64,000 bases of DNA from Acidimicrobiales bacterium (GTDB taxonomy: Bacteria > Actinomycetota > Acidimicrobiia > Acidimicrobiales > Aldehydirespiratoraceae): positions 2,444,868-2,508,867 of the forward strand of contig OZ244029.1 of NCBI GenBank assembly GCA_965214945.1, written 5' to 3'. The notes beneath the pieces were generated by a model. That model saw only the letters and a program-made list of their open reading frames with translations. It was not told the origin of the DNA and did not search any database. Below, piece by piece: positions 20,952-34,796 of the stretch. Made by a program: the position numbers and the translations under genes. Within the stretch, counting starts at the first letter, position 1, and every line of letters begins with the position of its first letter.

Positions 20952-22337
20952 ATGACGACAGGCATTGCGACAGGCACCGATCCGCAAGACGCCGCAGCCG
21001 CGGGTCTGCGCGCCACCACAAGCCGGCCCGTGGCTCGGGAGATCGCACCGGCCGGAGGACGCCTCGGAGTGCTCACTCCCGGCATGGGTGCGGTGGCCTC
21101 CACGTTCGTTGCCGGCGTGCTGGCAGCCCGCGGGGGCCTCGGCCCGCCCATCGGTTCGATCAGCCAGATGGCCCACATCCGCCTCGGCGCCAAGGCCGAG
21201 GGCCGCAACCCGCTCATCCGCGACTTCGTGCCGCTGGCCGGCCTCGACGATCTCGTGTTCGGCGGCTGGGACCCCCTGTCGGCAAACGTGCTCGAGGCGG
21301 CCCGCACCTGCGGCGTGCTCAACGAGCAAGACCTGAACCCCATTTCCGCGGAGATGGAAGGCGTGGTGGCCATGGACGCGGTGTTCGACCGGCGTTGGGT
21401 CTCGCGGCTCGACGGCGTGAGAGTGAAGAAGGCCGCATCGAAATGGGATCAGGCTCTGGCCCTGATCAACGACATCGAGGCTTTCCGGGTCGCCAACGAC
21501 TGCGACCGCTTGGTGATGGTCTGGTGCGGTTCCACGGAGGCGTTCTCTGAGCCGTCGGCTGTGCATGAGTCGGTGGCGTCGTTCGAAGCCGGACTGGCCG
21601 TCGACCACGCCGACATCGCCCCCAGCCAGATCTACGCTTACGCGGCCCTGCAGTGTGACGTGCCTTTCGCCAACGGTGCTCCCAACCTCACCGTCGATCT
21701 GCCATGGGCGCGGGAACTGGCTCGAACCAGGGGCGTGCCCATCGCCGGTAAGGACTTCAAGACCGGACAGACCTTGCTGAAGACGATGCTGGCCCCCGGC
21801 TTCAAGGCTCGGATGCTGGGCTTGAGAGGCTGGTATTCCACGAACATTCTCGGCAACCGCGACGGTGAGGTGCTAGATGCTCCGGAGAACTTCAAGAGCA
21901 AGGAGGTGTCGAAGCTAGGTGTGCTCGACACGATCCTGCAGCCCGGCGTGTACCCCGACCTCTACGACGAGATCCACCACGTGGTGCGCATCAACTACTA
22001 CCCGCCCCGGGGCGACAACAAGGAGGGGTGGGACAACATCGACATCTTCGGCTGGCTGGGCTATCCGATGCAAATCAAGATCGACTTCTTGTGCCGGGAC
22101 TCGATCCTGGCCGCGCCCATCGTGCTCGACCTGGCGCTGTTCATGGACCTGGCGGCCCGCGCCGGAGTGTCAGGCGTGCAGGAGTGGCTGAGCTTCTACT
22201 TCAAGGCACCTCAGCCGAGCCTCCCGGAGAGAGAGGCCGATGTTGAGCACGACCTGTTCATCCAACAGACCAAGCTGAAGAACACCCTTCGGGAGTGGAT
22301 GGGCGAGACTCCCGTCACCCACAGCGAGGCCGGCTGA
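20952..22337 (+). CDS. ino1: Inositol-3-phosphate synthase family protein (long bacterial type)
   Basis: 461 aa. GKDFKTGQTLLKTMLAPGF..GWYSTNILGNRDGEVL and the C-terminal NYYPPRGDNKEGWDNID resemble the MIPS (Inos-1-P synthase) family as I recall it. It does not resemble the short mycobacterial Ino1. Confidence 0.6.
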   Translation: MTTGIATGTDPQDAAAAGLRATTSRPVAREIAPAGGRLGVLTPGMGAVASTFVAGVLAARGGLGPPIGSISQMAHIRLGAKAEGRNPLIRDFVPLAGLDDLVFGGWDPLSANVLEAARTCGVLNEQDLNPISAEMEGVVAMDAVFDRRWVSRLDGVRVKKAASKWDQALALINDIEAFRVANDCDRLVMVWCGSTEAFSEPSAVHESVASFEAGLAVDHADIAPSQIYAYAALQCDVPFANGAPNLTVDLPWARELARTRGVPIAGKDFKTGQTLLKTMLAPGFKARMLGLRGWYSTNILGNRDGEVLDAPENFKSKEVSKLGVLDTILQPGVYPDLYDEIHHVVRINYYPPRGDNKEGWDNIDIFGWLGYPMQIKIDFLCRDSILAAPIVLDLALFMDLAARAGVSGVQEWLSFYFKAPQPSLPEREADVEHDLFIQQTKLKNTLREWMGETPVTHSEAG

Positions 22338-22356
22338 CCCCTCGCCCACCACAAGG
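22321..22356. repeat. Left copy of a ~35-bp direct repeat flanking the AT-rich island; spans the ino1 stop codon
   Basis: ACAGCGAGGCCGGCTGACCCCTCGCCCACCACAAGG aligns with 24554-24588 at 30 identities over 36 aligned columns (1 gap). Weaker similarity extends about 20 bp further upstream. Confidence 0.55.
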
Positions 22357-22359
22357 TAC

Positions 22360-22384
22360 GGCTCAGACGGAGGCCTGCTGAGCC
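22360..22384 (+). terminator. Hairpin GGCTCAG-N11-CTGAGCC downstream of ino1
   Basis: 7-bp perfect stem, 23 nt after the stop. There is no U-tract. Confidence 0.3.
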
Positions 22385-22491
22385 AGTTACGAGCGCTCGG
22401 CCAGGCTCAACTTGACCCGCTGCCTCCCTACAGTGTGATCTACAGCTGGACTACGAAGCCCGTCCGCCATCTCCCTTTGACGAGGATAATC

Positions 22492-23213
22492 ATGCCTGAC
22501 TTCGATCGATTTGAGAGACTAGTCATAGCAGCAATGACAGCTGCACCTGAAGACCTACCAGATATCCATCAAGAGGTGTCCCGAATCCCGCAGATCAACA
22601 GACCCAAATTCTATAAGGGCCTCCAATCAAACAGATTAGCAGCATGGATAGAACAAACAGATTAGCAGCATGGATAGAAACTGCGAGAGATTATCTAAAC
22701 TCACTTGGATACCCATATAATATCTTGAGATCTAATAATAACAATCAACAAGGTATGGATCTATTAGTAGTCACCACAAATCAGCAGATCGAACTAAAGA
22801 CAGGGAAAGTTACAGATGCTAATTTGGGACTAGGAACTCTCATGTGGGCATTTGATGATGCGGAGGAAAGGATAAAGTACATCTTAAATACCTCTATGAA
22901 AGAGCGCATAGAACTAGCAAACGCTAATGACTTTGGTAGAGTCATACAAAACCAGATTGAGACTATGGTAGAACTTGGCAAATTCTTCAAATCCCAGCTG
23001 ACGGAGGGAAGAGATGCCCCTCACAAACTTTCTATCCTAGCTAGATGTGTTGCTAGAGGTATCACAAGACTTGAGGCGATGAAGACGCTAGAAACCATAC
23101 CAGAGGAAAAGTGGAATGTTCCTATCATTTTACATACTGATAGGAAATTCGGCTGGGTGAAAGTGGACCGTCCGTTAGTATTCACACGGGCAATAGGTGT
23201 GTCAGTTCTGTAG
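22492..23213 (+). pseudogene. Type II restriction endonuclease (PD-(D/E)XK-like), disrupted by a 26-bp tandem duplication
   Basis: Track ORFs 22435..22665 and 22644..23213 share the peptide NRLAAWIE. Removing one 26-bp repeat copy fuses them in frame (…YKGLQSNRLAAWIETARDYLN…) into a 231-codon ORF starting at the ATG at 22492 (RBS GAGGA). GMDLLVVTTNQQIELKTGK gives a D...ExK nuclease-like motif. The gene is convergent with, and overlaps by 32 bp, an N6-adenine methyltransferase gene. The DNA is very AT-rich. Confidence 0.6.
22628..22679. repeat. Perfect tandem duplication 2 x 26 bp (CAAACAGATTAGCAGCATGGATAGAA)
   Basis: The copies are at 22628-22653 and 22654-22679 and are identical. 26 is not a multiple of 3, so the upstream frame ends at the TAG at 22663-22665. 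Confidence 0.97.
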
Positions 23214-24396
23214 CAGAAATCTGGGTGTTGCCGGTCAACATTCTGGCTCTAGCTAGTACTGACGGTGCTCGAAGAGCCTCTAGCAAGCAGTTCCATCCGA
23301 CCGACGCTTCAAACTGACCATGTCGACGGATCACGTTCACATGGTTCTCACCGACGAATTTATAATCCTCAGGAATAAGAGCACATCGCAGCTCCCCTGC
23401 GCCTACCGAGCCGGTGATTCGGTTGATCACGATAGCAGGTCCTATCAAGGCAGGCTTTGTAGTCTCAATATACTGAGGTCTCTTGTGATTCTCAGCCAGA
23501 CGGACCGTATCAGCAATGTTGTGGGCCCATATTAGCGGAACACTGCTCGACGTTCTTGTTCGCTTCAAATGCTGCTTGTTTTGATTCCATACGATTGTCC
23601 CTGTAACAGCTTCATAACCAAGTGAATACAGTGTATTATTTTTAGAGAAAGAGTCTGCCAGTGCCTCACTACTATTGGAGAATATCACACGTCGGAACCC
23701 AATATTTGGATATGATACCTCGAAACTATACTTGTCTGAGTTATCTCGACCCTTACGAAGTACTAGAAGTTGTACAGGAGTCTGAGCTTGGTCAAACAGA
23801 TCTGGTTGAGTATATATCTCAAGAAATTCGATGGCACATTGTCGAACTATATAATCCCGCAATTTGGAGAAATAAGCACCACTGTTCATCGATGGAGGAA
23901 CAACATAAGCTAGTTGACCTCCATCCCGTAAGATGTCGAGACCGGCTTGAAAAAATAGGGCAAAGATATTGGCTCGTCCGGAGATTACTTGACTAAAGTG
24001 TGCCCGTACTTCCTTCGGTAACTTGAGTTGAAAATAAGGAGGATTTCCAATGACTAGATCAAATCTATCGCCAAGGTAAGGATCGAGAGCCGATCGCTTT
24101 GTCAGCACTGCTTCTGGAACTGTATCACCTGCTACAGCCAGTATCTTAGAATCAATATCCCAGCCGTGTATCTCACACTCAGGCTCCCGATCGAGGATGG
24201 ACCGTAGAAACTCCCCTGTCCCAACCCCAGGATCTAGAACACGTATTCCAGGCCACAAGTCACATTGGTCTATCAGGCTCTCCCTAAGCACCTTCGGCGT
24301 CATGAACTGACCCAACTTCTTTCGATGAGAAATCGGGGTGTCCTCGATCCACCGGCGGGTGTTGGAAGATAGCTCCTGGTTGGCTATGCACACCAA
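23182..24396 (-). CDS. Gamma-class N6-adenine DNA methyltransferase (TaqI/Eco57I-like)
   Basis: 404 aa. Motifs: LGQFMTP (motif X), VLDPGVGTGEF (SAM-binding motif I) and IGNPPYF (catalytic NPPY motif IV), followed by a C-terminal target-recognition region. AT-rich codon usage. Confidence 0.85.
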   Translation of the reverse strand: MVCIANQELSSNTRRWIEDTPISHRKKLGQFMTPKVLRESLIDQCDLWPGIRVLDPGVGTGEFLRSILDREPECEIHGWDIDSKILAVAGDTVPEAVLTKRSALDPYLGDRFDLVIGNPPYFQLKLPKEVRAHFSQVISGRANIFALFFQAGLDILRDGGQLAYVVPPSMNSGAYFSKLRDYIVRQCAIEFLEIYTQPDLFDQAQTPVQLLVLRKGRDNSDKYSFEVSYPNIGFRRVIFSNSSEALADSFSKNNTLYSLGYEAVTGTIVWNQNKQHLKRTRTSSSVPLIWAHNIADTVRLAENHKRPQYIETTKPALIGPAIVINRITGSVGAGELRCALIPEDYKFVGENHVNVIRRHGQFEASVGWNCLLEALRAPSVLARARMLTGNTQISATELTHLLPV

Positions 24397-24443: not shown

Positions 24444-24553
24444 CACGCCTGCTAGTGTTAGCGGTGGACTTTCTACAAGATTAAGTGAGCAGGCAGTGAA
24501 GTGGGCATGCTGCCGATCACCTGAAACGCTGGCACAGCAGCCGAGCTTCCCGG

Positions 24554-24588
24554 ACAGCGAGACCGGCTGACCCTCGCCCGACGCAAGA
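24554..24588. repeat. Right copy of the island-flanking direct repeat (diverged copy of the ino1 3' end including TGA)
   Basis: ACAGCGAGACCGGCTGACCCTCGCCCGACGCAAGA. See 22321-22356. Confidence 0.55.
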
Positions 24589-24644
24589 GCCACGAACATC
24601 GGCTGCGACAAGAAGCGCTGCACCTTGCGAGCCCGGTTGACCGT
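24588..24644 (-). other. 57-bp fragment of atpD (duplicate of 33438-33494, 55/57 identical, same orientation)
   Basis: AGCCACGAACATCGGCTGCGACAAGAAGCG(C/T)TGCACCTTGCGAGCCCGGT(T/C)GACCGT. Track ORF 24435..24623 begins [12 protein letters not shown], identical to the AtpD peptide [13 protein letters not shown], then diverges. Confidence 0.9.
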
Positions 24645-24649
24645 GCCGA

Positions 24650-24900
24650 GGTGGGCCTATGCGTCTGCGGTAGCGGTATCGGCATCGCCATGGCCACCAA
24701 CAAGATCGCCAGCCACCGTCCACCACACCACTCGGCACGTCTTGCCCGCCAGCACAACGGCGGCAACGTGATCTGCGTGAGTGAGCGGCTGACCGGCTTA
24801 GAGGTGGCCCGGCGACGCTCTGGGTGCCTGGCTGGGTGCATTCTTCGAGGGGGATGCCCCTGCACTGTGTGGCGAAGATCGGCCGCCTTGGCGGTGAGAC
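24650..24900 (+). pseudogene. rpiB: Remnant of a ribose-5-phosphate isomerase B / LacAB-family gene (N-terminally truncated, frameshifted)
   Basis: Track ORF 24651..24995 starts GLCVCGSGIGIAMATNKIA...SARLARQHNGGNVICVSERLTGLEVA, which resembles the RpiB core (ICGTGIGMSIAANK...SARLAREHNNANVL...G). A second frame continues WLGAFFEG, resembling AWLxAxFEGG. No full-length frame exists. Confidence 0.55.
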
Positions 24901-24974
24901 CGGCAAAGAACTTGCCTGACCCGCCATCAACCGCCCTCAGCCCGGCGCGGTTGGGGCCACACCCCAATCTGAAC

Positions 24975-25012
24975 TTGACAGGGCAGGTTCGTTAAGTACA
25001 ATTACAAATTGT
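24975..25012 (+). promoter_or_regulatory. Sigma-70/SigA-like promoter (TTGACA-N16-TACAAT) giving a leaderless ROK-regulator mRNA, overlapped by the palindrome ACAATT-ACA-AATTGT
   Basis: The -35 is at 24975-24980 and the -10 at 24997-25002. The GTG start at 25011 is only 8 nt after the -10. The dyad at 24998-25012 spans the -10 and the start codon. Confidence 0.5.

Positions 25013-33266: not shown

Positions 33267-34796
<1,530 letters not shown>

Follow-up and report, generated by a model that had tools for sequence, protein, structure and literature searches.

The window analyzed here is a 64,000-nucleotide stretch of a bacterial genome that was assembled as a single 3.15-Mb contig. Just downstream of ino1 (20952..22337; Pfam NAD_binding_5 and Inos-1-P_synth), and before a gene for a ROK regulator, it carries a 2.2-kb restriction-modification (R-M) island of low GC content consisting of two convergent genes. 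GC content drops from 0.63–0.70 to 0.38–0.50 between about 22450 and 24450. One gene (M) encodes a gamma-class N6-adenine DNA methyltransferase, and the other (R) is the remnant of a putative restriction endonuclease gene. The features of the island are as follows (positions refer to the window).

22321..22346, no strand: left direct repeat, comprising the last ino1 codons with the stop codon and the next few bases (ACAGCGAGGCCGGCTGACCCCTCGCC)
22492..22653, plus strand: R pseudogene, codons 1–54, collinear with the intact homolog P0001 and with the rest of the family
22628..22653, plus strand: copy 1 of the 26-bp duplication (TRF and repeat search)
22654..22679, plus strand: copy 2 of the 26-bp duplication, which shifts the frame by +2 and creates TAG at 22663-22665
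22680..23174, plus strand: R pseudogene, codons 55–219, including the D81...E92-L-K94 hairpin (GMDLLVV..IELKTGK)
23172..23176, plus strand: junction of a 270-bp deletion, inside a 5-bp CCGTT microhomology (from comparison with alleles L001 and L028, listed below)
23175..23213, plus strand: non-homologous tail of a 231-codon open reading frame, 12 codons (LVFTRAIGVSVL) and a stop, running antisense through the 3′ end of M
23182..24396, minus strand: M, gamma-class N6-adenine DNA methyltransferase, 404 amino acids, NPPY motif, TaqI-like, intact
24554..24578, no strand: right direct repeat, a diverged copy of the ino1 terminus that reaches approximately 24588 when compared with L001 and L028

The left and right repeats are 95% identical over 20 nt and approximately 25–35 bp long (∼35 bp by the comparison with L001 and L028). 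No ORF for an integrase or transposase was found within the island. The right border (24525-24995) is a mosaic of the ino1-terminus copy (24554-∼24588), a 57-bp piece and an RpiB remnant. The 57-bp piece (24588-24652) recurs in the window at 33438-33502 and is present at 85–95% identity in many relatives, and the RpiB remnant is N-terminally truncated and frameshifted (Pfam LacAB_rpiB positions 48–115). No empty site was found among 40 related species genomes, in which the island is absent but the ino1 neighborhood is not syntenic. Sequencing runs X1–X4 also contain a second contig of ∼1.3 kb that matches the ino1 end (22300-22339) with four mismatches and diverges at 22339 into GC-rich sequence; it is deeper in X1 and X4. 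There thus seems to be, to judge from this contig, a co-occurring relative without the island at its ino1 site.

Within R, the sequence CAAACAGATTAGCAGCATGGATAGAA is present as two adjacent and identical copies at 22628-22679. TRF (period 26, 2.0 copies, 100% matches, no indels), a repeat search that returned the same two copies, and direct reading of the sequence all agree on this point, and the first-pass annotation had described the duplication correctly. The 52-bp array cannot be extended by even one base to the left or to the right, and microhomology was looked for on both sides of the duplication borders and not found. A perfect tandem 26-mer would be expected by chance in 64 kb with a frequency of approximately 1e-11 (64000 × 4^-26).

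The duplication frameshifts R at codon 55. Translation from the native ATG at 22492, which follows a GAGGA Shine-Dalgarno sequence (22482-22486) at a distance of 5 nt, runs into the TAG at 22663-22665, as had been proposed. The ATG at 22644, inside copy 1, is likewise in frame with a 189-codon ORF that ends at 23213. Removing one copy in silico gives a 231-codon ORF (22492-23213), which had been read as the restored gene. This ORF does exist and retains the D..ExK motif, but it is not the whole gene, since homologs are 292–307 amino acids long. Note also that the identity of the two copies had been taken as a sign that the event was recent. This argument is weak because 26 bp offers almost no resolution.

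That the 231-codon ORF is incomplete can be seen by comparing the window with other alleles found at the ino1-linked locus. Four allelic states were recovered, as listed here.

L001: R intact, 305 amino acids (P0001, 80% identical to the window); only the last 86 bp of M lie on the contig, 94% identical
Window (also runs X1–X4, with low-depth pieces in X5 and X6): R with the 26-bp duplication and the 270-bp 3′ deletion; M intact
X7 contig: R with the 23176 junction in common with the window and a further 674-bp deletion (22463 joined to 23138); M 97.4% identical over 879 bp
L028: R and its upstream region absent, R-M spacer kept; M full length, ∼90% identical, abutting the ino1 end

L001 is a 1277-bp Logan contig that begins with a 99%-identical ino1 3′ end and therefore represents this locus as it occurs in a related strain. 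In L001, the 26-mer region is present once. When this syntenic intact allele was aligned with the window, the window was found to lack ∼270 bp (L001 bases ∼923-1192), and with them R codons 220–305, the R stop codon and the greater part of the R-M spacer. At the junction, R codon 219 (…CGT CCG) is joined directly to a point 5 bp beyond the stop codon of M. The native R-M spacer, as read in L028, is CTGCCGTTAGTATTC, which places the deletion in the CCGTT microhomology at 23172-23176. The 231-codon ORF consequently comprises R codons 1–219 and 12 codons that are not derived from R.

Complete homologs end in a conserved block (…R-A-Q…YPNYKNSY…W-V…CFH[IV]WID), and the window ORF ends about 75 residues before it. 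The lost segment carries 13 of the 44 invariant columns of the family and corresponds to four confidently modeled β-strands in the AF2 family model. The C-terminal piece of R was not found elsewhere in the genome itself (the single 3.15-Mb contig), which has only one copy of R. R in this genome is a pseudogene with two independent lesions, the 26-bp duplication and the 270-bp deletion, and collapse of the duplication cannot restore the full enzyme because codons 220–305 are deleted.

The other two alleles extend this picture. In X7, the 23176 junction aligns without gaps, and the additional 674-bp deletion takes the rest of R, including the site of the duplication. In L028, the R-M spacer is kept, so the loss of R there is an independent deletion. 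R has been lost repeatedly at this locus, in at least two independent events, while M was kept. A single chromosomal site presents a natural series of R-M decay (R intact; 3′-truncated and duplicated; 3′-truncated and internally deleted; fully deleted), which illustrates how orphan methyltransferases arise.

Several further features of these and related loci were observed. Homology between L028 and the window stops at ∼24465. On the M-upstream side (L028:1-1000), a NUDIX gene and a 128-amino-acid ORF replace the rpiB/ROK neighborhood of the window, and the ino1 flank is the same, so that the locus is rearranged on one side. Divergence between L001 and the window (22259-23260) is mosaic, with the ino1 end 99%, R 81–86% and the 3′ end of M 94% identical, and with an ino1-R spacer rich in indels; this pattern suggests that alleles in the island have recombined or been replaced. 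In an Acidimicrobiia metagenome-assembled genome (MAG; L012:5001-6700), R extends to residue ∼246 and M to ∼344, both convergent 3′ ends having been lost, and another homolog (P0016) is an R frameshifted near its C-terminus. Decay at the R-M junction thus seems to be recurrent in the family.

The assignment of R as a nuclease derives from its family, which is small and uncatalogued. An indexed search recovered 20 homologs of R, and an exhaustive profile search of 1.84 billion proteins recovered 126 representative clusters (50% identity), nearly all of which match profile positions 1–293. Complete homologs are single ORFs, and no homolog was found split into two genes, an arrangement that would have allowed the two frames in the window to be separate functional genes. 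Most members occur in MAGs with names that point to marine or sponge-associated hosts. D81, E92 and K94 are invariant in the family (…G.DL…IELKTGxVTDAN…) and lie on adjacent predicted β-strands of the AF2 model (pLDDT 87, pTM 0.84).

Neither R nor distant members of its family matched any family in Pfam, NCBIfam and PADLOC scans, and PDB sequence and profile searches with the R family returned only noise. Foldseek of the AF2 model against the PDB gave no significant match (best E value 0.08, TM 0.15). Against BFVD, it returned one uncharacterized phage protein with an E value of 2.6e-4 but a TM of 0.29, which is not informative. Of 12 genome loci drawn from several phyla, 9 have a convergent M homolog directly downstream of R; hosts of these R-M loci include Acidimicrobiia, Spongiisociaceae, Marinacidobacterium and Arenicellales, among others. 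At a Dehalococcoidia-type locus (L002), the convergent neighbor of R belongs to a different Type II methyltransferase family. Because of the conserved linkage to M and the D..ExK motif, a Type II restriction endonuclease is the best reading of R, and we infer that the family belongs to the PD-(D/E)XK nucleases. This small, uncharacterized family of putative restriction enzymes should be flagged, and the intact allele offers a way to determine its specificity.

M had been described as intact, and this is borne out by its length of 404 amino acids, its NPPY motif and its alignment over the full length (98–100% coverage) with homologs of 400–410 amino acids. Its domain matches are to Pfam Eco57I (1e-15), Pfam N6_Mtase (3e-12) and PADLOC MTase_II (3e-44), and residues 25–214 match M.TaqI structures in the PDB with an E value of 1e-10. 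Values of dN/dS for M are 0.12–0.18 when the window is compared with L028, neither of which has a working R; by this measure M is under purifying selection, although part of the signal may date from before the loss of R. Taken together, intactness and dN/dS imply that M is probably active as an enzyme.

For the R remnant, dN/dS against the intact L001 allele is 0.21–0.31. Most of the divergence would therefore have accrued under selection, which makes inactivation of R comparatively recent. It had been suggested that the host disarmed a newly acquired restriction enzyme and was left with an orphan methylase. The core of this suggestion holds up, given a broken R and an intact M that is under selection. 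"Newly acquired" is doubtful because at least four diverged lineages carry the island at this ino1 site, with nucleotide divergence that reaches 14–19% for R and 10% for M.

We consider it highly probable that the locus is an ordinary case of a dead restriction gene, bearing two independent lesions, beside an intact and conserved methylase. On this explanation, which we hold as a whole with good confidence, the locus is predicted to work now as a solitary (orphan) N6-adenine methyltransferase.

The duplication itself is one instance of a common class of mutation. TRF applied to the whole 3.15-Mb genome identified 175 perfect two-copy tandem duplications with periods of 12–38 bp, or approximately one per 18 kb, and such perfect short duplications look like a characteristic mutational signature of this genome. 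Examples, in coordinates of the complete genome (C1), are 801061-801104, 521970-522046 and 1151634-1151698. Periods that preserve the reading frame are enriched (77 of 175, versus 58 expected) and peak at 15, 18 and 21. This enrichment indicates that the duplications are real mutations filtered by selection and not assembly noise. A screen for other genes broken by a tandem duplication gave seven further candidates, only one of which is a real gene fragment; most of the others are GC-rich shadow frames or the murD-ftsW junction. Outside the window, the perfect 23-bp two-copy duplication at C1:801061-801104 falls within a fragment whose domain matches are HSDR_N and N6_Mtase/MmeI_Mtase. Judged by these domains, the fragment is a second decayed R-M gene (Type IIG-like) that carries the same kind of mutation.

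The likely order of events can be outlined. A Type II R-M unit (2.2 kb, low GC) would have come to sit after ino1 between direct repeats of the ino1 terminus. The CCGTT-microhomology deletion of 270 bp would then have removed R codons 220–305 and the stop codon first. The deletion is common to the window and X7 lineages, which are 2.6% apart in M, and so it predates their split. The 26-bp duplication would most simply have arisen later, by neutral slippage or duplication, in a gene that was already dead. That the deletion came before the duplication is the more parsimonious reading, since two lineages have the deletion and only one has the duplication; note that X7 has deleted the duplication site.

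The opposite order, in which the duplication was the original disarming event and the 3′ deletion came afterwards, appears unlikely but deserves serious consideration. Loss of the duplication site from the X7 lineage means that the order cannot be read directly, and the low dN/dS of the R remnant indicates a fairly recent inactivation by whichever lesion. Sharing of the 270-bp deletion by two lineages 2.6% apart in M weighs against this order, as does the lack of any other known lineage with the duplication. In either order, R carries both lesions.

Two proposals made in the first-pass annotation would give the locus a present restriction function, and neither fares well. The first is that frequent collapse and re-formation of the 26-bp duplication toggle restriction, as a reversible ON/OFF switch. 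Perfect tandem duplications are unstable in principle, and collapse would reopen the frame through the catalytic motif. The single-copy form would still lack codons 220–305, however, and so this lineage has no ON state. A search for a minority single-copy allele had been proposed as a check; contigs from four runs and three samples contain the duplicated form alone, although contigs drop rare variants. Two copies of a unique 26-mer do not constitute a simple-sequence contingency tract, and the gene contains no other tract. In addition, sister lineages lost R through plain deletions, and the 175 similar duplications are spread over the genome. We therefore regard a switch as very improbable. 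A switch based on a duplication would have been of interest, and it is the second, older-looking lesion that rules it out.

The second proposal is that a truncated nuclease of 189 amino acids is produced from the ATG at 22644; an active 231-amino-acid product made after collapse can be considered with it. The 189-codon ORF is open, keeps D81...ExK and is called by a gene caller (P0002). Its product would lack 45 conserved N-terminal residues (the MPDFDxFER... helices) and 86 residues at the C-terminus, with them the entire C-terminal β-domain, and its final 12 residues are antisense read-through of M. There is no Shine-Dalgarno sequence ahead of 22644, and nearly all complete family members keep the full length. 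An active truncated enzyme is accordingly hard to credit, and annotators should be aware that the 189-amino-acid ORF reported by gene finders is here a pseudogene fragment.

An assembly error behind the duplication, the 3′ junction or the two together is also scarcely credible. In its favor, the genome comes from a metagenome-type assembly in one contig and has many perfect short duplications. Against it, the independent assembler Logan reconstructs the same 11,533-bp contig, second copy of the 26-mer included, from four runs (X1–X4; three samples, one study) with zero differences, so that the deposited assembly did not create the duplication. A low-depth X5 contig from another study crosses the 23176 junction exactly, and the genome-wide enrichment of in-frame periods (77/175) is a signature of selection that would not be expected of artefacts.

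The reading of R as a dead gene beside a conserved methylase can be carried further. Considered jointly, R may found an uncatalogued family of Type II restriction endonucleases, may have been discarded repeatedly at ino1 while M was kept, and M may have been co-opted for an epigenetic or protective role in the host. We hold this combination only tentatively and give it somewhat less than an even chance. If it is true, a methylase would have been taken over for such a host role in symbiont-like lineages.

The locus can be compared with several known systems. Phase-variable R-M genes in Haemophilus, Neisseria and Helicobacter are simple-sequence contingency loci, in which homopolymers or tracts of 2–5-nt units are repeated many times and the ON and OFF forms are both functional alleles. 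The R gene resembles them in having a repeat-associated frameshift in an R-M gene. It differs in that a unique 26-mer has been duplicated just once and in that the second lesion precludes a functional ON allele.

Furuta, Abe and Kobayashi (2010; PMC2853133) described R-M units inserted with long target duplications. The island is similar in being a small unit without an integrase or transposase that is bounded by direct repeats copying its target, the ino1 terminus. Unlike those units, its repeats are short (∼25–35 bp) and diverged, its right flank is pieced together from fragments of genes, and the 40 related genomes, not being syntenic at ino1, provide no empty site for comparison.

Another parallel is provided by Type II R-M systems whose N6-adenine methyltransferase is TaqI-like (gamma-class, NPPY). 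The two-gene convergent arrangement, the matches of M and the D...ExK hairpin of R are all shared with them. This R, in contrast, matches no catalogued restriction endonuclease model or PDB fold, and it is dead in this genome.

A further parallel is with solitary methyltransferases that arise by decay of the cognate nuclease. Because of post-segregational killing, loss of R has to precede loss of M, and retention of M with loss of R at ino1 fits this logic. In Helicobacter pylori, many R genes are reportedly inactive beside an active M. Orphan methyltransferases that are conserved within lineages have been reviewed (PMC12707154; PMC6471742). The locus is like these cases in that M is intact and conserved and R is frameshifted, truncated or deleted. 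It differs in presenting, from metagenome-derived lineages, four allelic states of one locus, in which R ranges from intact to wholly deleted and was lost at least twice independently; the activity of M is a prediction in this case. The event is thus of a known kind, decay of R that leaves a solitary methyltransferase, and modest interest is added by the putative, uncatalogued nuclease family and by the multi-allele series of recurrent R loss.
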